42,952 nt of DNA from Candidatus Woesearchaeota archaeon. GTDB lineage: Archaea > Nanobdellota > Nanobdellia > SCGC-AAA011-G17 > PNOQ01. Positions 7,576 to 41,149 of the stretch are shown here, piece by piece. A program made the position numbers and the translations under genes. The stretch spans positions 1 to 42,952 of the forward strand of contig JBDRML010000004.1 in NCBI GenBank assembly GCA_043812195.1. Reading direction: 5' to 3'. Every line of letters begins with the position of its first letter. Position 1 is the first letter of the stretch. The notes beneath the pieces are model-generated. The model saw nothing but the letters and a program-made list of their open reading frames with translations, made no database searches and was not told the origin of the DNA.

Positions 7576-8199
7576 TTGGATTGGATGTATGTAGTTCTGT
7601 TATTAGTTTTACTATCTGCTTTTATATTTAAATCTTTAAAGAATATAGGTAAAAATCAAGGAATATTTTTTATTTTGACTTTGTTTCCTTTGTTATTATT
7701 GGTTGGACATTATTTTTCTATTAGTAATGTTTTGTCTAATATTGTTTTAGTTGTTTTTATTGCTTCTATAACGTTTTATCCATTTACTTTTGTTATTAAG
7801 AAATTAAAAGATAGAAAGTTGAATTTGCTTGTGTATTTGACTTTGCTTATTGAATGGGATTGGATTATTACTTGGACGTATTTGAATCGCTTTTCTTTAG
7901 AAGAACTTAATCCATTATTAGATGTAAATAGTTTATTTTTCTTTTCAATTCAGAAGTTGATGCCTTTGGCAATATTTTTCTTGTTGTATTTAGTTTCTAG
8001 AGATAATAAGAAGTTGTCTCAGGTGTTAGAGATTATTTTAGTTGTTGTTGCTATTGCGTATGCTTTATTGTTTTTATGGCAGATGTATGTTGTATCTTTA
8101 TTTACTGGTTATATTCTTTATTTATTACCTATATCTATTGGTTTTATTATTTACTTTGTGTATAAGATATTAAGGAATAAATTCAGCTTTAAAAGATAG
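7576..8199 (+). CDS. Hypothetical multi-pass membrane protein
   Basis: About 7 hydrophobic segments; ELNP motif; TTG start is uncertain. Confidence 0.65.
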   Translation: MDWMYVVLLLVLLSAFIFKSLKNIGKNQGIFFILTLFPLLLLVGHYFSISNVLSNIVLVVFIASITFYPFTFVIKKLKDRKLNLLVYLTLLIEWDWIITWTYLNRFSLEELNPLLDVNSLFFFSIQKLMPLAIFFLLYLVSRDNKKLSQVLEIILVVVAIAYALLFLWQMYVVSLFTGYILYLLPISIGFIIYFVYKILRNKFSFKR

Positions 8200-8236
8200 A
8201 TTTTTAAATTAAGTATTTCTCTAAAATTTATTATAT

Positions 8237-8309
8237 AGCCCCATGGTCTAGAGGCCCATGACACGACCCTCTGGAGGTCGGGACCCAGGTTCGAATCCTG
8301 GTGGGGCTA
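8237..8309 (+). tRNA. tRNA-Gln(CUG)
   Basis: Cloverleaf AGCCCCA/TGGGGCT, anticodon stem CGACC/GGTCG, CTG at 8271-8273, T-loop TTCGAAT; A1-U72 typical of archaeal tRNA-Gln; no encoded CCA. Confidence 0.95.
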
Positions 8310-8311
8310 TT

Positions 8312-8386
8312 GCTCCTGTAGTGTAGTCCGGTCCAGCATTTTGGGTTCTCAGCCCAACGACCCGGGTTCAAATCCCGGCGGGAGCA
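8312..8386 (+). tRNA. tRNA-Glu(CUC)
   Basis: GCTCCTG/CGGGAGC acceptor, TTGGG/CCCAA anticodon stem, CTC at 8348-8350, CCGGG-TTCAAAT-CCCGG. Confidence 0.95.
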
Positions 8387-8458
8387 TATTTTACTTTTAA
8401 GTAGTAACAAAATGGAAAGATTTATAAAGGTCTGTTCTTATAATTTATTAGATTAAAA

Positions 8459-8659
8459 ATGACAAATTATTTAATGATTGATACTGATGAAATGATAAGA
8501 CAGTCAAATAGAGAATTTAGAGAAGCATGTAGAAGAACTGATGAAATGATAAGACAGTCAAATAGAGAATTTAGAGAAGCATGTAGAAGAATTGATGAAA
8601 TGGCCTTACAATCACGACCTGAAATTAAAAATCTCTATAATGTTCTTGAAAATATTTAA
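8459..8659 (+). CDS. Small hypothetical protein with internal 18-aa duplication (cassette 1)
   Basis: BRE/TATA-like GGAAAGATTTATAAA at about 8414-8428; TDEMIRQSNREFREACRR twice. Confidence 0.6.
   Translation: MTNYLMIDTDEMIRQSNREFREACRRTDEMIRQSNREFREACRRIDEMALQSRPEIKNLYNVLENI
8483..8602 (+). repeat. 54-bp in-frame tandem repeat, about 2.2 copies
   Basis: ACTGATGAAATG...TGTAGAAGA identical at 8483 and 8537, partial at 8591. Confidence 0.95.
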
Positions 8660-8729
8660 TCAATAATTTTATAAGATTTAACTAATTACATTTCTCAGAA
8701 GAATTAGGTGATAAATTAAAGTGAATACG

Positions 8730-8750
8730 ATATGCTCGGCGGGAGCATAT
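8730..8750 (+). repeat. att-like copy 1 of tRNA-Glu 3' end
   Basis: ATATGCT-CGGCGGG-AGCATAT: 14 nt identical to the tRNA end/trailer; perfect 7-bp arms around a 7-bp spacer. Confidence 0.85.
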
Positions 8751-8818
8751 AAAAATCACAGAAATACATAAGGTATATAAACAAAATTATATTCTTTAAT
8801 AATAAGGAAAAAATTAAA

Positions 8819-9037
8819 ATGAAAAGAGATTTGGTGCTTATAATTGTTAACAAAGATCCTGATAGTGAAAAGGCTAAAGATTTCCTTTCTCAAAAAAAAG
8901 AAAAATATTTTTTTGTAGAAACAAGTTTTGATTCAGACATAGCAAGTAGATATAAAATTCCAACGCTTTTTATTAAAGGAGAACCTTACCAAGGTTTAGA
9001 TAATCTTATACATGGTTTGACTTACCATTATTATTAA
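8819..9037 (+). CDS. Small glutaredoxin/thioredoxin-fold-like protein without Cys (cassette 2)
   Basis: DPDSEKAKDFL aligns to CPxCxxAKxFL; IPTLFIKGE..QG cis-Pro motif; TATATAAA upstream. Confidence 0.6.
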   Translation: MKRDLVLIIVNKDPDSEKAKDFLSQKKEKYFFVETSFDSDIASRYKIPTLFIKGEPYQGLDNLIHGLTYHYY

Positions 9038-9106
9038 TTCTTGATAATTAAACCGAAAAATCCCAAAGGGCTAAGATTTATAATGTTTTGTTATTTCCTT
9101 TAGAAA

Positions 9107-9193
9107 ATGGATTTAGAGGATATTATAATTTTAGGAATAGGAGTTCTTGCACATATCGGAATAATAGTAAATAGACAAGTCGTAAGACCATAA
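9107..9193 (+). CDS. Possible 28-aa hydrophobic peptide MDLEDIIILGIGVLAHIGIIVNRQVVRP
   Basis: Read directly from sequence; TTTATAAT about 25-30 nt upstream; below ORF-track cutoff. Confidence 0.4.
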   Translation: MDLEDIIILGIGVLAHIGIIVNRQVVRP

Positions 9194-9311
9194 ATACGGG
9201 TTTTTAAAAGTATTTAATCGTTTCATTGGTTAATCGGAACTACTTTGAAACATTTATAAAACCACATAATAACCCAATTTCAACAGAACATAGGTTTGAA
9301 GAGAACTTCTA

Positions 9312-9332
9312 ATGCCCGGCTGGAGCATATTT
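9312..9332 (+). repeat. att-like copy 2 of tRNA-Glu 3' end
   Basis: ATGCCCGGCTGGAGCATATTT; 17/18 identical to CCCGGCGGGAGCATATTT of the tRNA. Confidence 0.85.
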
Positions 9333-9425
9333 ATTTAATACACCATTAGAGCTTTTACATTTAGGATATTCTTAGGGATTTAAAATGTCTATTTTACATT
9401 AGTTTGTTAGACAAAGAAAAAATTA

Positions 9426-9764
9426 TTATGTACAAATTACTTTTATTGGGTCTGATTCTATAACTTCGCAATCATGGTTTTCGCATTTAGTAAGGCAATA
9501 AGCGTGTACTTCCCATAAGCTACAAATCGGAGTATCCTGGGTTGGAAATTTTACGCATTCATAGTCTTCATTACAATCTGAACTTTTTTGACAAATTTGT
9601 ATTTCGGGGCACTCTTCAAATTCACAAGACAATCCCTCACGCCCAACGACTGTACCATCGGGACATCCTTTTCCTTCTTTAGTACAACCAGCTATAAAAC
9701 TACATGAACTTGCTACTAAAACTAAAGAAATTAGAATTGCTATTAATATTCCTCTTTTTAACAT
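9426..9764 (-). CDS. Cys-rich secreted protein/lipoprotein (cassette 3)
   Basis: Signal/lipobox-like N-terminus; CTKEGKGCPDGTVVGREGLSCEFEECP motif. Confidence 0.75.
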   Translation of the reverse strand: MLKRGILIAILISLVLVASSCSFIAGCTKEGKGCPDGTVVGREGLSCEFEECPEIQICQKSSDCNEDYECVKFPTQDTPICSLWEVHAYCLTKCENHDCEVIESDPIKVICT

Positions 9765-9865
9765 GTAGTTAATTCATATAAGTAACTTATATATTTTTCT
9801 TTTGTCCAACTTACACTTGTTTTTTATATACTAATCCTAAAGCTCTAACTATGTACATTTTGTGA

Positions 9866-9882
9866 ACGCCCGGCGGGAGCAT
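9866..9882 (+). repeat. att-like copy 3 of tRNA-Glu 3' end
   Basis: ACGCCCGGCGGGAGCAT; 14 nt identical to the tRNA end. Confidence 0.85.
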
Positions 9883-9940
9883 GTTACCTTATTTTAAAAA
9901 TTCTGTAGAAAAATGTATAATTTAAGGTGTATTTGTGCAT

Positions 9941-10453
9941 TTACCCTTTTGTTTGATTAAGTAAATCGTAAATACATTGAATGTTGCCTTCTCTCATTAC
10001 CCAACACCCCCCATAACAATCTTCTTTGTTTTTACAATTAATACATTTTTTATCTGTTTTTATTACTTCTCTATTTCTGTATTTTTTGAATCCATTATTC
10101 CATATATCAATGAAAGACTTTTCTAAGATTGATCCCTCTCTAAATTTTTTCACATCAGGCATTTCTGGACATCCTCTCACGTTTCCATCTGTTCCTATAC
10201 AGCAAGCGGTAAATCCAACAGGACAAATTAATGGGGAATCTCTTATCTTTGTTTCATATTCTGCTAAAAAGGGTAGATTTTCACCAATTTGTATTTTAAG
10301 ATTATCTTTATTTGAAGAAACAAATTCAAATAATTCTACCAATTGTTTTGAAGATAATATCAAATCTTTATCTGCTCTTCCAATTGGCATAACTACACAT
10401 ATTCTCCAATTCTTGACGCCTAATTCCAATAAAAAAAATTTTAATTCTTTTAA
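9941..10453 (-). pseudogene. C-terminal fragment of a radical SAM/SPASM protein
   Basis: PIGRA, CPVG...CIGTDGNVRGC, C..C.....CYGGC SPASM motifs; no CxxxCxxC N-terminus; in-frame stop just upstream. Confidence 0.8.
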
Positions 10454-10458
10454 ATAAA

Positions 10459-10797
10459 TTGAAAATTGATTCTAATGATGCTTATGATAGCCTTATAAAA
10501 ATAAAATATATAGGTAATAAAATAGCTACTTTATATTTAAGAGAACTATGTTGGTTATTTGATATAAAACCAAATGATTATACGTTAATTTTTCCAATTG
10601 ATACTTGGGTTAGGCAAATAATTAATAGATTAAATATATTAGAAAGTTCAGAAGAAAAATTTAATGATTCTGAAATACAAAAGAAAACAATAGATTTTTG
10701 CCTTAAAAATAATATAAACCCTATGAAATTTAATGCGGGAATTTGGTATATTGGCAAAAATTCTTTAAATATAGTCTTGGAAGAGATTAGTAAATAA
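10459..10797 (+). pseudogene. C-terminal fragment of an HhH-GPD DNA glycosylase-like protein
   Basis: LIKIKYIGNKIA helix-hairpin-helix and FPIDTWVRQ motif occur right after an unconvincing TTG start. Confidence 0.65.
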
Positions 10798-10900
10798 TTA
10801 ATTGTAAATACTTACATTTCAGGCAAAATAAACACTTATCGGGCAAATCCAACAAACCCATAAGATTTTTAAGCTATCTTTTTTAATAAAAATAGAGAAA

Positions 10901-11251
10901 ATGGTATACAAACAAGTAAAATCCAAATTTATCAAAGATAAAATAAGAGGATTGAGGTGGAATAAGAAGAATGTAGAATATGTAGATAATTTAGTATTTA
11001 TAGAAGATTATATTTTGGATAAAACTGCTGGTCTTGGAGTTGGTTATAAAATTAATTCATTTAAAAATAAATATAAAAAAGAATATGAAGAAATTTATAA
11101 AGAATTAAGACCTAAAGAATTTAAGCAAGTTAAAAAAAGAAAAGTAAAAGAAAGGAAAAAAGAGGAAAAGGAAAATAGAAAATTTGATGAGGATAAAAGA
11201 AAAGAAGAAGAACAAGCTAAAAAAGAATGGTTAGAAATGGGTGGTAAATAG
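10901..11251 (+). CDS. Highly charged hypothetical protein
   Basis: 116-aa ORF, TTTTTAAG TATA-like element upstream. Confidence 0.65.
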   Translation: MVYKQVKSKFIKDKIRGLRWNKKNVEYVDNLVFIEDYILDKTAGLGVGYKINSFKNKYKKEYEEIYKELRPKEFKQVKKRKVKERKKEEKENRKFDEDKRKEEEQAKKEWLEMGGK

Positions 11252-11347
11252 TTTTCACCCTTTGTGCAACAGCTTCAATGCGACAGCCGATTTTGAGACA
11301 CTACCGAGCATAGTAATATTTATATAGTTCTAATTCTAAAAATAGAT

Positions 11348-11698
11348 ATGGCAAAAAAAGCTGGAAGAACACACGATAAAGGAGATGACAAGATCCTTTT
11401 TGCTTTCTTAGCTACTTTTCTTAGTATAATTGGATTTATAATAGCTTTAATTGCTAAAAAAGATGATAAGTATGTAATGTTTTATGCTAAACAAAGTTTG
11501 ATAGTTTTTATATTTGCTATTGCTGTTAGCATTATTCAGGCCTTGCTTGCTTTTATTCCTATATTGGGTTGGATAATTAATTTTGGCCTTGGGATTATAA
11601 CATTTATTGCATGGCTTTTAAGTTGGATTTATTCTTTATCTGGAAGTATGAAAGAAGTTCCGATAATTGGAATTTATGGAAGAAAATTTAAACTCTAA
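11348..11698 (+). CDS. DUF4870-like small membrane protein
   Basis: YVMFYAKQSL, FIPILGW, VPIIG; three TM segments. Confidence 0.75.
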   Translation: MAKKAGRTHDKGDDKILFAFLATFLSIIGFIIALIAKKDDKYVMFYAKQSLIVFIFAIAVSIIQALLAFIPILGWIINFGLGIITFIAWLLSWIYSLSGSMKEVPIIGIYGRKFKL

Positions 11699-11737
11699 TT
11701 TTTTATACACAAACTTTAAATAGATGTTTTTGAAATT

Positions 11738-12547
11738 ATGATTATGAAAAAGAAGAGGGTTAAAAAGAAGATAAATGAAGAGACTAGTAAAAGCTACAAA
11801 TTAACTAGTGCTGCTTTAGTTATATTTTTATTATTAGTTGGTATTGTTATTGGTGCTATTGGCCAAAATTATGTTGGTTTTATCAAAGATGTTACTCCTG
11901 TGAATATTGATAAGACTAAATTTGAAACTGAGCCTGGAACAATATATATTAAAGTGCCTGCTGTAGATAATGAGGGTAATGGAGTTTATACTAAATTAGG
12001 TGTTAAAATTGAGGAAGGAAGTGGAAATACATTAGTTGATATTGATAGTTTATTATTTTGGGTTGATACTCAAAATAGTATAAGAATGGCTAAATTAGTT
12101 GCTGAAGAAACTACAGGTATTAATACTGAAAATTATGATATTACATATATAATAAATGCTGATGCTAGTTTGATTGGCGGTGAAAGCGCTGGTTCTGCTT
12201 TGACTATAGCTACAATTGCTGCCTTACAAAATAAAGAATTAAGAGATGATGTAATGATTACTGGAACTGTGAATCATGATGGTTCTATTGGTCCTATTGG
12301 GGGAGTTTTACAAAAAGCACAGGCTGCTAAATCTGCTGAAGTAAAAACTTTGTTAGTTCCTTTATTACAGAGTAGAGAAGTTACATATGAAGAAACAGAA
12401 CATTGTGAGCAATTTGGATTATTAGAATGGTGTACTATTGAAAGAATACCTGTGCAGATTAATATTGCTGAGGAAACAGGACTTGAAATTATAGAAGTTG
12501 GAACTATTAAGGATGCTTTGACTTATCTTATTAAAGAAGACAGTTAA
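11738..12547 (+). CDS. Membrane-anchored Lon-like (S16) serine protease without ATPase domain
   Basis: IGGESAG (Ser), MITGTV..DGSIGPIGGVLQK (Lys) dyad; N-terminal TM helix. Confidence 0.9.
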   Translation: MIMKKKRVKKKINEETSKSYKLTSAALVIFLLLVGIVIGAIGQNYVGFIKDVTPVNIDKTKFETEPGTIYIKVPAVDNEGNGVYTKLGVKIEEGSGNTLVDIDSLLFWVDTQNSIRMAKLVAEETTGINTENYDITYIINADASLIGGESAGSALTIATIAALQNKELRDDVMITGTVNHDGSIGPIGGVLQKAQAAKSAEVKTLLVPLLQSREVTYEETEHCEQFGLLEWCTIERIPVQINIAEETGLEIIEVGTIKDALTYLIKEDS

Positions 12548-12577
12548 TTATATAAATCTCTATGAATTGTTATTGTT

Positions 12578-13021
12578 ATGAAAAGAGGTCAGGCAGCTAT
12601 GGAATTCTTGATGAGTTATGGTTGGGCTATTTTGGTTGTTTTAGTTGCGATATCTGCACTAGCTTATTTTGGAGTTTTAGATCCTAATAATTCATTACCA
12701 GAAACATGTATACTTTTTCCAGGTTTAGGATGTGATGATTATAAAGTAGATAGTAATGGAGTAACTTTAGTTATAACTAATGGTCTTGGAAAAGATTTGG
12801 AGTCTTTTAGCATAACTGTATTAGGAGATGGTGCATGCGGGGAAGATAGTTCTCAAACAGTTAATTTGAATGATGGTGGCAGGGTTATATTAAATATTGA
12901 TTGTATTGAAAAACCTACTCCTGGCATGAGATTTGTGAGAGAATTACAAGTAAATTATAATGAAATTGGAGGATTAGATCATAATAGACTTGGAGATTTG
13001 TCTACTATGGTTGAAGATTAA
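12578..13021 (+). CDS. Type IV pilin (class III signal peptide), paralog A
   Basis: KRG/QAAMEFLMSYGWAILVVLV. Confidence 0.85.
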   Translation: MKRGQAAMEFLMSYGWAILVVLVAISALAYFGVLDPNNSLPETCILFPGLGCDDYKVDSNGVTLVITNGLGKDLESFSITVLGDGACGEDSSQTVNLNDGGRVILNIDCIEKPTPGMRFVRELQVNYNEIGGLDHNRLGDLSTMVED

Positions 13022-13773
13022 TTTTTTAATATAGAACTTTTCATAATAATTCCTTTGGAAGTTATATCTATTTCGAATACTTTATTTGGGTGTTTTGTTC
13101 CTCTCATCTTTAAAATTTCTAGACCTCTTTTTCTACTGCCTGATTTTAATGGGTGATACAATAACATTATACCTTCTACTTCAAAGTCTAGTGCTGCTGA
13201 AAATACTGGGTTTCCGTGTTCTTTATCTTCGTCTCCTTGTGCAGTTAGAACTGTTGTGCATTGCCAATCATTAATCATGTTGAATAAAGATAGTGCTGCT
13301 TCTTTTTTTGCTAATTCTGAAGGATATAATAATGCGAATGAAGTTATTGAATCTATTACTAATCTTTTTACTTTCTTTTTTGTTATTGTAGTATCTAGAG
13401 TTCCACCACCTTCTACTAATACATTTTTAATTTGTTCTGGGGTGTATGATAAGAACGTGAATATTCCTTTTTTTTCATAAGATTCTAAATCCCAACCTAT
13501 TGTTTTCATATCTTGATAATATTTATTTTTGTTCAATTCAAATGTTATATACATACAACTTTCTTTTTTCTTTAGACCTTCCATAAGAAAACTGGTAGCT
13601 AATATTGTCTTACCTGATCCTGGCCCGCCTTCTATTAAATTTATACTGTAATTTTTGTAACCTCCCTGAATTAAACTATCTAATTTTTTAATTCCTGTTG
13701 ATAATCTTGATGGTACTTTTTTGGGAGCTTTTTTCTTGACTATTTTCTTTTTTGTTTTCTTTGTTTTTGCCAT
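13018..13773 (-). CDS. KaiC/FlaH-like (RAD55-family) ATPase
   Basis: STGIKKLD, GGPGSGKT, LVIDS, KMRGT; Lys-rich N-tail. Confidence 0.9.
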   Translation of the reverse strand: MAKTKKTKKKIVKKKAPKKVPSRLSTGIKKLDSLIQGGYKNYSINLIEGGPGSGKTILATSFLMEGLKKKESCMYITFELNKNKYYQDMKTIGWDLESYEKKGIFTFLSYTPEQIKNVLVEGGGTLDTTITKKKVKRLVIDSITSFALLYPSELAKKEAALSLFNMINDWQCTTVLTAQGDEDKEHGNPVFSAALDFEVEGIMLLYHPLKSGSRKRGLEILKMRGTKHPNKVFEIDITSKGIIMKSSILKN

Positions 13774-24505: not shown

Positions 24506-24636
24506 TGGGACTGACAGGATTTGAACCTGCGACCTTTATCGGATATTGTTTAAATCTCTCGATGTCTGCTTAGACTGATATCAGTCGAATGAGCGGAAAT
24601 TGATCCTGTGCTCCAGCCAGGCTAAGCTACAGTCCC
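24506..24636 (-). tRNA. tRNA-Ile(GAU) with three introns (27/28, 37/38, 43/44)
   Basis: Removing 24589-24607, 24564-24578 and 24536-24557 gives a 75-nt cloverleaf GGGACTG...CTCGA CT GAT AA TCGAG AGGTC GCAGG TTCAAAT CCTGT CAGTCCCA; introns 1 and 3 sit in BHB motifs. Confidence 0.88.
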
Positions 24637-39877: not shown

Positions 39878-41149
39878 AATGTTATTAAAATTCTAAGGTA
39901 TTTAAATGTTGTTTTTATAAGTAACCGTTTAGCTGCTTAGGGTTTGCCTAAGCATTCTAAAGGTATTTAGTCCTCTCAGTTTCCATGTTGCTAATACAGA
40001 CATTACGGTTTCCTTGATTCTTATTCCTTTTTCATTCCATAAAGAGCTTATCTTTCTTTGTACAACTATTTCTCTTAATGCGTTCTCTGCTTTGTTATTG
40101 GTCGGCTCTATCTCTGGATGCAGTATGCAGGTAAACCAATGCTCTAATCCATTTTCTATTGTAACAGCGAATTTCTTTAGTTTATTGCATGCTTTGCATA
40201 TGCTTATCCAGATAATCATTTCATTCATACTCCAATCATAAGTTTCTTTTCTTATTCTGTTTGACGTATTCAATGTAATTTTCTTTATCTTTTTGAATAT
40301 TCTGCATAAGCCTTCATATACTAATACTGCTGCTCCTTTGTATTGCTGGGCATAGTATTTAGCTTCTCTTAGTAAATGAGCCCAGCATCTTTGTATTTTA
40401 TTTGTGCATTTAGGATAGGATTTTAATCCATCGCAAGTTATTATTCCTTCATAATTATTTCCTAATGCTTCCTCTAAGGTTTTATAGCCTCTGCTTTTTC
40501 TTATAAGAAATAAGACAGAGCTTAGTGTGACAAATACCCATGTCCAAAAGTTATTTCCCTGCACTTTAATGCCTGTTTCATCTGCATTAGTCTGTGCAGA
40601 TGAAATTACTTCCTGCTTTATTGCATTGAATATTGGTTGAAGATTATCTGATACTCTTCTTGTAATGTCTAATATACTAGCAGGAGTTAATTCTAAGCCG
40701 TATCTTCTGTTTAGATTATCTGATATCTTCCTATGCGGCAGTCTGTCTTCATATTTCATTAAGGTTATCTCTGACTGCAGATTTGGACCAAATCTTCCTT
40801 CATCAGGCAGTTCGGGATCTGTTGGAATTACTTCCTTATTGCAGTTATTGCAGAAGTAATGCGGTATTGTAAATTGTGTGATTTTTAATGGCAGAAGGTC
40901 TGGTATGTCTTCTATAATCTTTCTTTTAATGTGCCTTGGTCTTCCAAGTCTCTTATTGCAATCAGGGCATTTAGCTAATTTAAGCTCCTTAAATCTATTT
41001 GGTTCAGGGGTCTTTCTTGTGGTTCCCTTATGGCCTATAGGAGCCCCTATTTTGTTATTGGAGCTCTCTCTTTTAGGATATCTTCTTTGTAAAGAAGGAG
41101 GGGTATTATAATTTTCATATATTAGAATCCTCTTCTTTAAATCTTCTAT

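Follow-up and report, generated by a model that had tools for sequence, protein, structure and literature searches.

Stack of small units bounded by tRNA ends behind tRNA-Glu(CUC) in a Candidatus Woesearchaeota genome: a probable tandem accretion of integrase-less mini-islands

Description of the locus

The window, a stretch of 42,952 nucleotides, lies on contig C4 (JBDRML010000004.1) of a Candidatus Woesearchaeota archaeon, an ultra-small inhabitant of groundwater. The genome is a 45-contig metagenome assembly of 938 kb (0.94 Mb), 90% complete. Two adjoining tRNA genes are followed by four units, each closed on the right by a copy of the tRNA-Glu 3' end.

8236-8310, + strand: tRNA-Gln(CUG), directly abutting tRNA-Glu(CUC).
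8311-8387, + strand: tRNA-Glu(CUC), the anchor; its last 14 nt, CCCGGCGGGAGCAT (8374-8387), are the attL-type identity block.
8388-8734, + strand: unit 1 (347 bp), one ORF and a promoter-like motif.
8735-8748, + strand: copy c2, CTCGGCGGGAGCAT, one mismatch to CCCGGCGGGAGCAT, centre of a perfect dyad at 8730-8750.
8749-9314, + strand: unit 2 (566 bp), ORF 8819-9037 (72 aa) and ORF 9107-9193 (28 aa).
9315-9328, + strand: copy c3, CCCGGCTGGAGCAT, one mismatch to CCCGGCGGGAGCAT, with GAACTTCTA 5 nt to the left.
9329-9868: unit 3 (540 bp), ORF 9426-9764 on the - strand (112 aa).
9869-9882, + strand: copy c4, CCCGGCGGGAGCAT, no mismatches.
9883-11302: unit 4 (1420 bp), eroded, two 5'-truncated genes and a Lys-rich ORF.
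11303-11312, + strand: copy c5, degenerate and distal, ACCGAGCATA; strain-level breakpoint at 11290.
11348-11698, + strand: DUF4870 gene, flank outside the stack.
11738-12547, + strand: Lon_C-domain (Lon-like) gene, flank outside the stack.

The 14-nt block comprises the 3' strand of the T-stem, the 3' strand of the acceptor, the discriminator A and one further base. It recurs downstream at 8735, 9315 and 9869, always on the + strand, with successive spacings of 361, 580 and 554. These three direct-orientation copies were already noticed in an initial annotation and are non-random: with up to three mismatches CCCGGCGGGAGCAT matches five times in the window against 0.14 expected, a count reached by 0 of 100 shuffles. 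The fifth match, at 24608-24621 on the - strand, comes from a different tRNA, whose end it forms. Elsewhere in the 938-kb genome the block is found once, on contig C45, as the 3' end of a second, intron-containing tRNA-Glu (UUC). The direct repeat is thus the 3' part of an intact tRNA gene, found downstream in the same orientation, as in tRNA-targeted integration, and supports the earlier view of the copies as att-type identity blocks of a tRNA-anchored insertion stack.

Copy c2 differs from the block by C-to-T. The T-stem of tRNA-Glu has this variant in genera g4 and g5, and the resulting CTCGG is the form of tRNA-Glu in other genera (G010, G021, G003, G009). Such a copy is expected if the left part of attR derives from an attP formed in another host.

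The block is preceded by A(T/C)G in all three copies and by AAT in the tRNA, which agrees with the left arm described in the initial annotation. The accompanying dyad survives in one copy only; it is perfect (7-7-7) at 8730-8750, weak at 9315 and absent at 9869. The c2 dyad forms a hairpin whose stem has 8 bp and whose loop has 5 nt (z -3.5; 0 of 200 shuffles as good). Folding at 9315 is matched by 30 of 200 shuffles and at 9869 by 141 of 200, which leaves one copy of three with a hairpin better than shuffles. GAACTTCTA stands 25 nt or less to the left of both Glu copy c3 and Thr copy J3, and GACTTCTA to the left of a copy in G022, a genome of the sister genus g6; the GAACTTCTA-type motif has 23 copies genome-wide, both strands together. 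The left-arm motif in its 16-nt form, searched with 2 mismatches in 240 genomes of the order, gives matches about as common as a reversed control. Two motifs searched in viral contigs give 0 matches. Rfam at E up to 1 detects nothing in 8200-11800 beyond the two tRNAs.

Cargo of the units

The small ORFs reported earlier in the intervals are present. Each unit has a TATA-like box, read by eye from the sequence. Unit 1 carries the promoter-like motif AGTAGTAACAAAATGGAAAGATTTATAAAG at ~8400-8431; its ORF (8459-8659, 66 aa) contains a perfect in-frame 54-bp tandem duplication at 8483-8590 and has one weak homologue among 5.8 billion proteins. ORF 8819-9037 of unit 2 gives a weak glutaredoxin-like match, lacks CxxC and, in the homologue search, finds none other than itself. 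Its origin as a decayed orthologue of the glutaredoxin beside the Lon-like gene in G022 was considered and rejected, as the two give no alignment.

The unit 3 protein is Cys-rich and signal-peptide-like. The unit has a subterminal inverted repeat (TTAGAGCTTT, 9346-9355; AAAGCTCTAA, 9839-9848) and, at 9802-9835, a 34-nt motif common to G022 and G019. In genus g6 this Cys-rich gene belongs to the ordinary chromosomal genes and has no att flanks. In unit 4 a SPASM-only radical-SAM fragment (9941-10429, - strand) stands head to head with a 112-aa fragment (10459-10797, + strand), which equals the C-terminal region of a ~250-aa paralogue encoded on contig C30; a Lys-rich ORF (10901-11251) follows. 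PHROGs yields for ten unit proteins a weak radical-SAM match and Fic-family matches only. The sequence of the intervals is unique: the assembly contains no unit twice and no circular junction. The entire inserted stretch has no match in phage and plasmid records.

The locus in relatives and strains

Relative to the family relatives, ~2.9 kb are inserted exactly at the tRNA-Glu 3' end. tRNA-Glu abuts the Lon-like gene in six family genomes by coordinates (G002, G008, G014, G004, G017, G013), and the junction was read in sequence for three of them (G002, G014, G004). This bears out the earlier proposal of an insertion that extends from the tRNA to the distal copy. Unit DNA was sought in 40 relatives and found in none. 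Longer tRNA-Glu-to-Lon gaps (L042, L044, L047, L056, L071, G015) contain ordinary genes and no repeats of the tRNA-Glu end.

Metagenome contig L039 is 99.7% identical to 11290-13718 and diverges completely to the left, where the 3' end of a DDE-transposase gene stands in place of unit 4. The degenerate copy guessed in the initial annotation at ~11303-11312 is therefore real: the near-identical contig departs just left of it and has a better copy (GCTCGG-AGCAT) at the junction. Near-identical strains thus differ in content exactly at a repeat, copy c5. Parts of 7600-12400 are contained in 8 groundwater or metagenome sequencing runs (shares 0.08-0.49, which carry no claim on habitat or strain).

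Arrays behind other tRNA genes

Three further tRNAs of the genome, one Thr and two Tyr-type, are followed by arrays of the same kind, which brings the number to four (C4:8200-11800, C38:7300-10400, C29:76100-76950 and C16:61750-62700). Copies of the tRNA end are located at +368 (degenerate), +859/860 and +2921/2922 for tRNA-Thr (contig C38), at +573/574 for tRNA-Tyr (contig C29) and at +717 for a Tyr-type tRNA (contig C16), whose unit holds a ParE-type toxin pair. In four relatives (728 kb) 0 of 41 tRNAs show it. As controls, 14-mers of tRNA 5' ends are repeated nearby in 0 of 24 cases and 3' ends are repeated upstream in 0 of 24.

The nine units span 0.36-2.1 kb, with repeats of 12-17 nt; seven of them, across the four tRNAs, measure 361, 368, 504, 554, 580, 586 and 717 bp. 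Symmetric subterminal inverted repeats occur in three of the nine (1, 4 and 1 of 300 shuffles), 5-20 nt inside the ends and of different sequence in each unit, and are absent in six.

ParE-type pairs like that of the C16 unit occur within ~1.2 kb on the downstream side of eight further tRNA genes, which represent six identities: Gly, Leu, Ile, Thr, His (three loci) and Glu. These are 8 of 47 loci surveyed from other DPANN species (binomial P 5e-4 against a background of 4%, an assumed value). Three of the eight are bounded by the end of that same tRNA, at +551, +555 and +890 (units of 551-890 bp), and L216 carries a second unit. The pair is found in both orientations relative to the tRNA. No conserved terminal sequence is seen among ParE units of different species, and inverted repeats are present in 0 of 4 foreign units (the three toxin-pair units and the second L216 unit).

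Recombinases and larger elements

Contig C4 encodes no tyrosine or serine recombinase, in keeping with the earlier statement that the array has none. Elsewhere the genome has four tyrosine recombinases (PF00589, on C36, C1, C15 and C45), whose open frames around the Pfam match span 208 to 454 codons, and one serine recombinase (resolvase, C45). A tblastn search with the genome's own four integrases detects no integrase fragment in the nine units (best E 4.4). A recombinase gene, which none of the nine units contains, is present at the same tRNA-Glu site in two genomes of the sister genus g6: an integrase gene of 387 aa starts 72 nt past tRNA-Glu in G022, and one of 403 aa starts 70 nt past it in G024. 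The own integrases are only 23-31% identical to these two. No attR of the G024 element lies within 3.2 kb.

In G022 an orphan copy (G022:C33:442-456, GCTCGGCGGGAGCAT) stands upstream of the Lon-like gene and is the apparent right end of the element. Both its variant core, GCTCGG..., and a 34-nt motif ~200 nt farther left recur in unit 3 (motif at window 9802-9835). The stretch from tRNA-Glu (contig C37) to the orphan copy (contig C33) is presumably one element across a contig break. A shorter form of the motif has only 2 occurrences in the Woesearchaeota genome, both 54-67 nt left of an att copy.

The initial annotation treated as an objection to its own view that the intervals might map to eroded ends of large integrase-bearing elements. 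The objection holds in part. Integrase elements exist at the site in g6, unit 3 shares motif and core with one of them and the genes of unit 4 are truncated, and at least some intervals therefore look like miniaturised ends of larger elements.

Interpretation

The stack is the footprint of repeated site-specific insertion and no true integron. The stretch 8388-11312 is best read, on balance, as a tandem accretion of four integrase-less, att-flanked mini-islands produced by serial site-specific recombination, probably miniaturised larger elements. In the presumed order of events, each insertion would have rebuilt tRNA-Glu from incoming DNA and deposited an incomplete copy (attR) on its distal side, pushing older units away from the tRNA. 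Such outward displacement would make the copy farthest from the tRNA both the oldest and the most decayed. The recombinase, its class likewise presumed, would have come from outside the array, acting in trans or being lost with the rest of the element. The units, 1-3 included, would be internal-deletion derivatives of integrase-bearing elements like those at the tRNA-Glu site of the sister genus, and in bacterial terms most likely CIME-like remnants. The two truncated genes of unit 4 and the motif shared by unit 3 and G022 may point to such an origin; units 1 and 2 are uninformative.

Several features count against remnants. The range of 361-717 bp in seven of nine units, with intact ORFs, is narrow for random erosion of 5-20-kb elements. 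The subterminal inverted repeats of three units are as in complete small elements. For the ParE pairs, a small mobile unit is a more parsimonious explanation than erosion that ended time after time in one minimal unit. The internal att copies are nearly undecayed (0-1 mismatch), which makes the whole stack young. The lack of integrase fragments, the low identity of the own integrases to those of g6 and the contig break in G022 also weigh against the accretion of miniaturised islands.

Clearly less probable, and put forward tentatively, is that the units are true mini-cassettes: sub-kb non-autonomous circles of one gene or a toxin-antitoxin pair and a short tRNA-matching core, which a recombinase encoded elsewhere would insert at tRNA 3' ends and excise again. 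They would be a functional analogue of the integron, or of trans-mobilised CIMEs or MITEs. Seven of nine units across four tRNAs are sub-kb and ORFs are intact with promoter-like boxes of their own, but unit 4 is plainly eroded and the Cys-rich gene of unit 3 is chromosomal without att flanks in g6. Inverted repeats in three units would suit complete cassettes, yet are missing in the other six and in all four foreign ParE-locus units. The four tyrosine and one serine recombinases could act in trans; the assembly has neither a circular junction nor a second copy of a unit. The strain difference at c5, GAACTTCTA near Glu c3 and Thr J3 and GACTTCTA near the G022 copy fit movement of cassettes, whereas no unit DNA is found in 40 relatives, in phage and plasmid records or, for two motifs, in viral contigs. 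A further argument comes from the ParE-type pairs behind tRNAs (8 of 47 loci), three of which are closed by the end of their own tRNA. Toxin-antitoxin pairs are, however, expected to outlast erosion owing to addiction, and could mimic a minimal cassette by surviving it. More doubtful still is the general proposal that DPANN-type archaea may own a tRNA-anchored gene capture, in which sub-kb circles with a single gene or a toxin-antitoxin pair would enter at the extreme 3' end of many different tRNA genes, carry or acquire the final 12-17 nt of their target and stack through a recombinase encoded elsewhere; if true, capture at tRNA ends would be an integron analogue without IntI or attC.

Improbable is a transposon-type insertion, in which a casposon-like or other transposase would place non-autonomous units at tRNA 3' ends with a 12-15-bp target-site duplication. 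Casposons insert next to tRNA 3' ends with a short target duplication, of 14-15 bp where tRNA ends are targeted, and the 12-17-nt repeat resembles this. Whichever tRNA is targeted, the repeat copies its end, and the toxin pair takes either orientation. The inverted repeats near both ends of three units are, however, subterminal rather than abutting the duplication, unlike between units and missing in six of nine; no Cas1 is found in the 90%-complete genome. A fresh local duplication would not give the c2 variant, which matches the tRNA of other hosts, and it is integrases that occupy the same tRNA-Glu site in relatives.

It is very unlikely that the copies are functional RNA or DNA signals (mini acceptor-stem hairpins for processing or termination, or split tRNA pieces): the copies are intergenic and the 8-bp stem of c2 mimics the top of the acceptor stem, but one copy of three folds better than shuffles, Rfam finds only the two tRNAs in 8200-11800 and the copies coincide with the insertion and the strain breakpoint. 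The split-tRNA or tRNA-half idea was dropped, 14 nt being too short for a tRNA half and Rfam giving nothing. Chance or an assembly artefact is least likely of all, for although repeats can mislead assemblers and the metagenome assembly is in 45 contigs, the count is reached by 0 of 100 shuffles, the intervals are unique, the distal junction region reappears in an independent metagenome contig and 14-nt repeats are below the assembly k-mer length.

Significance

Insertion at tRNA genes is textbook knowledge, as is tandem accretion. A literature search by title and abstract finds no sub-kb att-flanked stacks at archaeal tRNAs (supplementary tables of PMC9897764 and PMC3718332 may list small remnants) and no paper on Woesearchaeota genomic islands with tRNA and integrase. 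The literature found does not describe stacks of 0.36-0.7-kb units, their occurrence at four tRNAs of one 0.94-Mb genome, or a toxin pair that turns up again, in further ultra-small archaea, after eight other tRNA genes with six identities.

Should the units be remnants, they reveal the speed and thoroughness with which streamlined genomes reduce integrated elements to an addictive or useful gene, and mark tRNA 3' flanks as the main entry ports for accessory genes in such organisms. If the units move as such, they are a new minimal gene-cassette system in archaea. On either reading the 12-17-nt repeats are a simple, countable marker of recent gene gain in metagenome-assembled genomes.

Comparison with known systems

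As far as PMC9668308 describes them, integrons and CALINs, archaeal ones included, resemble the array in being ordered, with small, mostly single-gene units of ~0.4-0.7 kb, toxin-antitoxin and unknown cargo and the newest unit expected beside the anchor; for CALINs the recombinase may act in trans. Membership, claimed in the initial annotation as integron-like, is not upheld. The array has no IntI-type gene beside it (PF00589 matches only on C36, C1, C15 and C45) and no attI. Integron cassettes each end in an attC hairpin, an imperfect palindrome of ~60-140 nt, whereas the array repeats a 14-nt tRNA end. Instead of promoterless, co-oriented cassettes under a common promoter, the units have TATA-like boxes of their own and the gene of unit 3 is on the opposite strand.

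She et al. (2001) reportedly treat integrated elements at archaeal tRNA genes under the title 'Gene capture in archaeal chromosomes'. By the partial account taken from PMC9897764 and PMC3718332, archaeal tRNA-integrated elements are likewise targeted to tRNA and leave a complete tRNA copy as well as a partial one, remnants that lack a functional integrase are common and toxin-antitoxin and orphan cargo is typical; Sulfolobus tRNA genes carry remnants of 13 insertions (PMC3718332). These elements are ~9-23 kb, have ~44-bp repeats reaching into the anticodon region and are flanked by SSV-type integrase fragments, whereas the array has a 12-17-nt block at the extreme 3' end, sub-kb units and no integrase fragments. 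Casposons, as characterised in parts of PMC4779613 and PMC4046053, differ from the array: no Cas1 is found in its genome, its units have no inverted repeats at the very ends, and the c2 variant speaks for an attP origin.

The Dehalococcoides ssrA islands, to the extent covered from PMC3146451, also stand several in tandem behind one small stable-RNA gene, in a small, streamlined host genome. They share a short direct repeat of the RNA gene 3' end (20 bp there, 14 nt here) and, immediately 5' of these repeats, a conserved position or motif that is missing from the RNA gene itself; some are without an integration module and are called possible cis-mobilizable elements. They are phage-sized and 16 have a serine-recombinase integration module (PMC3146451), whereas the array belongs to an archaeal host, involves four different tRNAs and consists of nine 0.36-2.1-kb units without recombinase.

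CIMEs and accreted integrative elements, as outlined in part of PMC5704250, are att-flanked, lack an integrase of their own and stand in tandem at one att site, as the units do. They are bacterial and have known partner ICEs or IMEs (PMC5704250); by analogy, the units may be likened to CIMEs.

Structure of the tRNA-Glu locus

The window is AT-rich (G + C content about 29%) and carries, downstream of a tRNA-Glu(CUC) gene, repeated copies of the end of that gene. Units are the intervals between successive copies.

8236–8310, + strand: tRNA-Gln(CUG), directly adjoining tRNA-Glu (no spacer at 8310/8311)
8311–8387, + strand: tRNA-Glu(CUC), anchor gene
8374–8387, + strand: anchor block CCCGGCGGGAGCAT, terminal 14 nt of the tRNA-Glu gene plus one base
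8388–8734: unit 1, promoter-like motif and 66-aa ORF
8735–8748, + strand: copy c2, CTCGG... form, 1 mismatch to CCCGGCGGGAGCAT
8749–9314: unit 2, 72-aa ORF and 28-aa ORF
9315–9328, + strand: copy c3, ..GGCTGG.. form, 1 mismatch to CCCGGCGGGAGCAT
9329–9868: unit 3, 112-aa Cys-rich, signal-peptide-like ORF on the opposite strand
9869–9882, + strand: copy c4, exact match to CCCGGCGGGAGCAT
9883–11302: unit 4, eroded; SPASM-only ORF, 112-aa ORF, then Lys-rich 116-aa ORF
11303–11312: copy c5, degenerate
11738–12547: Lon_C-domain gene

Successive copies of the tRNA-Glu end are spaced by 361, 580 and 554 nt. With up to 3 mismatches allowed, CCCGGCGGGAGCAT has 5 matches in the window against 0.14 expected, a number reached by 0 of 100 shuffles; of these five, one is the end of a different tRNA. 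The sole further copy in the 938-kb, 45-contig genome is the end of a second tRNA-Glu (UUC, intron-bearing) on contig C45. This second gene (C45:65440–65640), detected only via its 3' end, contains a long insert at a non-canonical position. The difference in left flank reported in the initial annotation is present, the copies being preceded by A(T/C)G and the tRNA block by AAT. The dyad proposed there holds at 8730–8750, a perfect palindrome folding into an 8-bp stem with a 5-nt loop (z −3.5, 0/200 shuffles as good); it is weak at 9315 (equalled by 30/200 shuffles), and the copy at 9869 has no fold (141/200).

Contents of the units

The 66-aa ORF of unit 1 has one weak homologue only among 5.8 billion proteins. 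It contains a perfect in-frame 54-bp (18-codon) tandem duplication at 8483–8590, which looks like a very recent event. The promoter-like motif of unit 1, (A)GTAGTAACAAAATnGAAAGnTTTATAAAG, lies at 8400–8431 and occurs 20–35 nt upstream of start codons at 7 genome sites, the others being C45:53862, C29:92153(−), C37:12246, C23:89(−), C17:42008(−) and C41:15089(−); an eighth copy, read by eye, follows the degenerate tRNA-Thr copy on C38. The motif also matches related genomes of the order; genes downstream of it are mostly hypothetical, and one site is beside an element's integrase. For the 72-aa ORF of unit 2 the protein search returned no homologue except itself; a glutaredoxin match is sub-threshold and the CxxC motif is absent. 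Full-length homologues of the unit 3 ORF (~40% identity) are present in 30 of 240 genomes from the order, including the present one; in g6, the sister genus, the homologue is an ordinary chromosomal gene across the tRNA pair, free of att-like flanks. In unit 4 the SPASM-only ORF lacks a radical-SAM core, the 112-aa ORF matches the C-terminal portion of a paralogue of ~250 aa (contig C30), and these two gene fragments meet head to head at ~10430–10458. Integrase fragments are detectable in none of the units, and no tyrosine or serine recombinase is encoded on the contig; the initial annotation had noted the lack of an integrase in the window.

Insertion at the tRNA end and strain difference

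In six members of the family (G002, G008, G014, G004, G017, G013) coordinates place the Lon_C-domain gene next to tRNA-Glu. Reading of three of these (G002, G014, G004) places a TATA-like box and the gene start 45–85 nt after the tRNA; in the window, ~2.9 kb plus a DUF4870 gene separate the two. None of the 24 other family genomes has the tRNA-Glu end in multiple copies at a single locus. Relative to the six genomes, the stretch behind tRNA-Glu is an insertion at the tRNA end.

The distal copy c5, a guess in the initial annotation, proved real at a strain-level junction. Window 11290–13718 is matched at 99.7% identity by metagenome contig L039 (2938 nt), whose initial 508 nt, unrelated to the window or the remaining genome, encode the 3' end of a DDE transposase. 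The L039 junction reads ...TTTTTAGACAC GCTCGG-AGCAT AGTAATA, that of the window ...TTTTGAGACAC TACCG-AGCAT AGTAATA; near-identical strains thus carry different DNA left of the decayed c5, a content change exactly at a repeat of the kind suggested for strain comparison. A second metagenome contig (L040, 98.5% identical) begins only at 11645, right of the junction.

Arrays at other tRNA genes of the genome

Copies of the final 14 nt of 24 tRNAs were sought within 12 kb downstream and found for three, Glu, Thr(UGU) and Tyr; aragorn tRNA calls miss some intron-bearing tRNAs, and an intron-bearing Tyr-type tRNA is a fourth case. In controls, 5'-end 14-mers were repeated nearby in 0/24 and 3' ends upstream in 0/24.

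tRNA-Thr(UGU), C38: copies at +859/860 and +2921/2922, degenerate copy at +368
tRNA-Tyr, C29: copy at +573/574
Intron-bearing Tyr-type tRNA, C16: exact copy 717 nt downstream

Measured from start to start, the units span 361, 580, 554 and ~1435 nt behind tRNA-Glu, 368, 504 and 2062 nt behind tRNA-Thr, 586 nt behind tRNA-Tyr and 717 nt on C16. Among the products encoded in the other arrays are a Fic-family protein, a Pol-beta-type nucleotidyltransferase and a ParE-family toxin whose small partner is convergent with it. By one script, downstream copies occur at 0/41 tRNAs of large contigs of four relatives (728 kb) vs 3/26 here (Fisher's P = 0.054; 0.022 counting C16), values only indicative, the relatives being non-independent.

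An orphan tRNA-Thr-end copy, CTCTCCTGAGGCTT, of the same variant as the distal C38 copy, lies at C15:19037–19050 with no tRNA nearby and may be a trace of rearrangement. A 41-nt hairpin-containing element, GTAACCGTTTAGCTGCTTAGGGTTTGCCTAAGCAT..., is intergenic at window 39921–39961 and shares 40/41 positions with C16:61931–61971, within the toxin-pair unit behind the C16 tRNA. A 252-aa LAGLIDADG-type ORF at C29:75421–76179 (L036 1422–2180) runs into the 5' part of the tRNA-Tyr gene, which has an intron, and ends there.

Links to integrase-bearing elements

A family-wide Pfam integrase scan identified two tRNA-Glu(CUC)-adjacent integrases in g6. The G022 gene (387 aa) begins 72 nt behind the tRNA, and from there small element-type genes reach to the end of the contig; the G024 gene (403 aa) begins 70 nt behind its tRNA. 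The integrases of the present genome are 23–31% identical to these two. At the start of another G022 contig, 2.7 kb upstream of its Lon-like gene, lies an orphan copy TTGCTCGGCGGGAGCATATG. Because the G022 tRNA-Glu itself has CCCGG, this copy looks like attR of the G022 element, the link across the contig break being inferred. The GCTCGG form is common to the orphan and to c2. The CTCGG of c2 is the tRNA-Glu T-stem form of genera g4 and g5, as expected if the left part of attR stems from attP formed in another host. A 34-nt motif, TTGTCAATCTTACACT...ACTAAT, lies ~200 nt left of the orphan and at window 9802–9835, 67 nt left of c4, and is present in 3/25 family genomes; its shorter form has just two sites in the present genome, the second being 54 nt to the left of the degenerate copy of the Thr end. 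Non-tRNA copies preceded by G, GCYCGGCGGGAGCAT, occur in 4/240 genomes of the order (own, G022, G049, G201), with no tRNA calls at the three foreign loci, of which sequence reading covered that of G049.

Directly behind tRNA-Glu, 92 nt are similar (78% over 98 nt) to the promoter region next to a 399-aa integrase gene that belongs to an element on C45. This apparent integrated element (C45:46000–56000, L034) encodes a resolvase, a ParB-HTH protein, a D5/DUF5906 primase-helicase and the 399-aa tyrosine integrase with zinc ribbon; a 382-aa ORF is RHS-type by eye, Pfam giving only a weak DUF6134 match. Flanking direct repeats were not found around it. In G022, ~300 bp with one 67-aa ORF (L025, G022:C33, 457–761) lie between the orphan tRNA-Glu-type copy and a 10/14 core match CTTGGCGTGGGCAT, and may be a further mini-unit in another genus (chance ~0.02 by rough estimate).

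Origin of the units

The whole pattern fits site-specific recombination, in which a short identity block at the extreme tRNA 3' end recombines with a matching block carried by circular DNA from outside. Every such event would restore the tRNA and leave a partial copy distally; repeated events would stack units, the newest adjoining the tRNA, and the element-derived left arm would be recognisable by its conserved −1 G and by the CTCGG variant. The most decayed Glu copy is the most distal, c5, as stacking order predicts. On balance the units appear to be miniaturised derivatives of integrase-bearing elements of the type that G022 and G024 carry at this site, a reading favoured by the evident truncation of unit 4 and by the subterminal sequence that unit 3 has in common with the right end in G022.

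Mobilisation of the sub-kb units themselves in trans, the stronger idea of the initial annotation, is a tentative alternative, consistent with the narrow size range and with intact ends in three units. Symmetric subterminal inverted repeats occur in 3 of 9 units, differing in sequence between them, and are absent in the remaining 6.

Glu unit 3: TTAGAGCTTT, 10/10, 17 and 20 nt from cores, 1/300 shuffles as good
Tyr unit: TATTAGGCAA, 10/10, 6 and 9 nt from cores, 4/300 shuffles as good
C16 unit: GTTTAGGTCGAAATCC, 15/16, 5 and 8 nt from cores, 1/300 shuffles as good

Several motifs of this analysis were noticed post hoc. GAACTTCTA lies ≤25 nt left of c3 and of the distal Thr copy, with GACTTCTA left of the G022 orphan; it was picked after being seen and has 23 genome copies on both strands.

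The strongest point for small complete units is that a minimal toxin-pair unit recurs behind tRNAs of many kinds. When one genome per species was searched with the C16-unit ParE-type toxin, 47 loci were obtained (up to 74% identity), with record names of Woesearchaeota, Nanoarchaeota, Pacearchaeota, Aenigmatarchaeota, Iainarchaeum and others. In 8/47 a tRNA 3' end (Gly, Leu, Ile, Thr, His at three loci, Glu) is followed within ~1.2 kb by the pair, which occurs in both orientations relative to the tRNA (binomial P = 5e-4, with an assumed background of 4% from ~40 tRNAs per Mb, 1 kb each). Three of the 8 pairs are bounded by a copy of that tRNA's own final 12–13 nt with ≤1 mismatch: at +551 in L216, where a second unit of 1080 nt follows, at +555 in L220 and at +890 in L199. 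Among foreign ParE-locus units, significant inverted repeats were found in 0/4 and no common terminal sequence was seen. Toxin-antitoxin addiction could also account for the survival of just the toxin pair through erosion.

A transposon with target-site duplication is very improbable: no Cas1 was found in the genome, each unit that has inverted repeats has its own, placed subterminally, and the variant in c2 speaks against fresh duplication of a local target. That the copies are functional RNA signals, or an artefact, is unlikely.

Comparison with known systems

In archaea, tRNA-targeted integration, partial tRNA copies and degraded remnants are already well documented. Elements described in Thermococcaceae are ~9–23 kb with 44-bp repeats (PMC9897764), and 13 insertions left remnants at Sulfolobus islandicus tRNA genes (PMC3718332). 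Dehalococcoides has tandem islands behind the stable-RNA gene ssrA, some lacking an integration module; like the copies here, they are described with a conserved disagreement upstream of their 20-bp repeats (PMC3146451). Archaeal integrons are described mostly as attC-site clusters without IntI, and integrons, archaeal included, resemble the present array in small unit size and cargo type (PMC9668308). The array had been termed integron-like; none of the defining integron features tested here was found. This tRNA 3' end carries an accretion stack; what sets it apart is that sub-kb units lacking a recombinase occur at four tRNAs of a single ultra-small archaeal genome. Composition, genome size and the naming of related records are the grounds for placing the organism in DPANN. 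That comparable minimal units are widespread in DPANN archaea is a lead.
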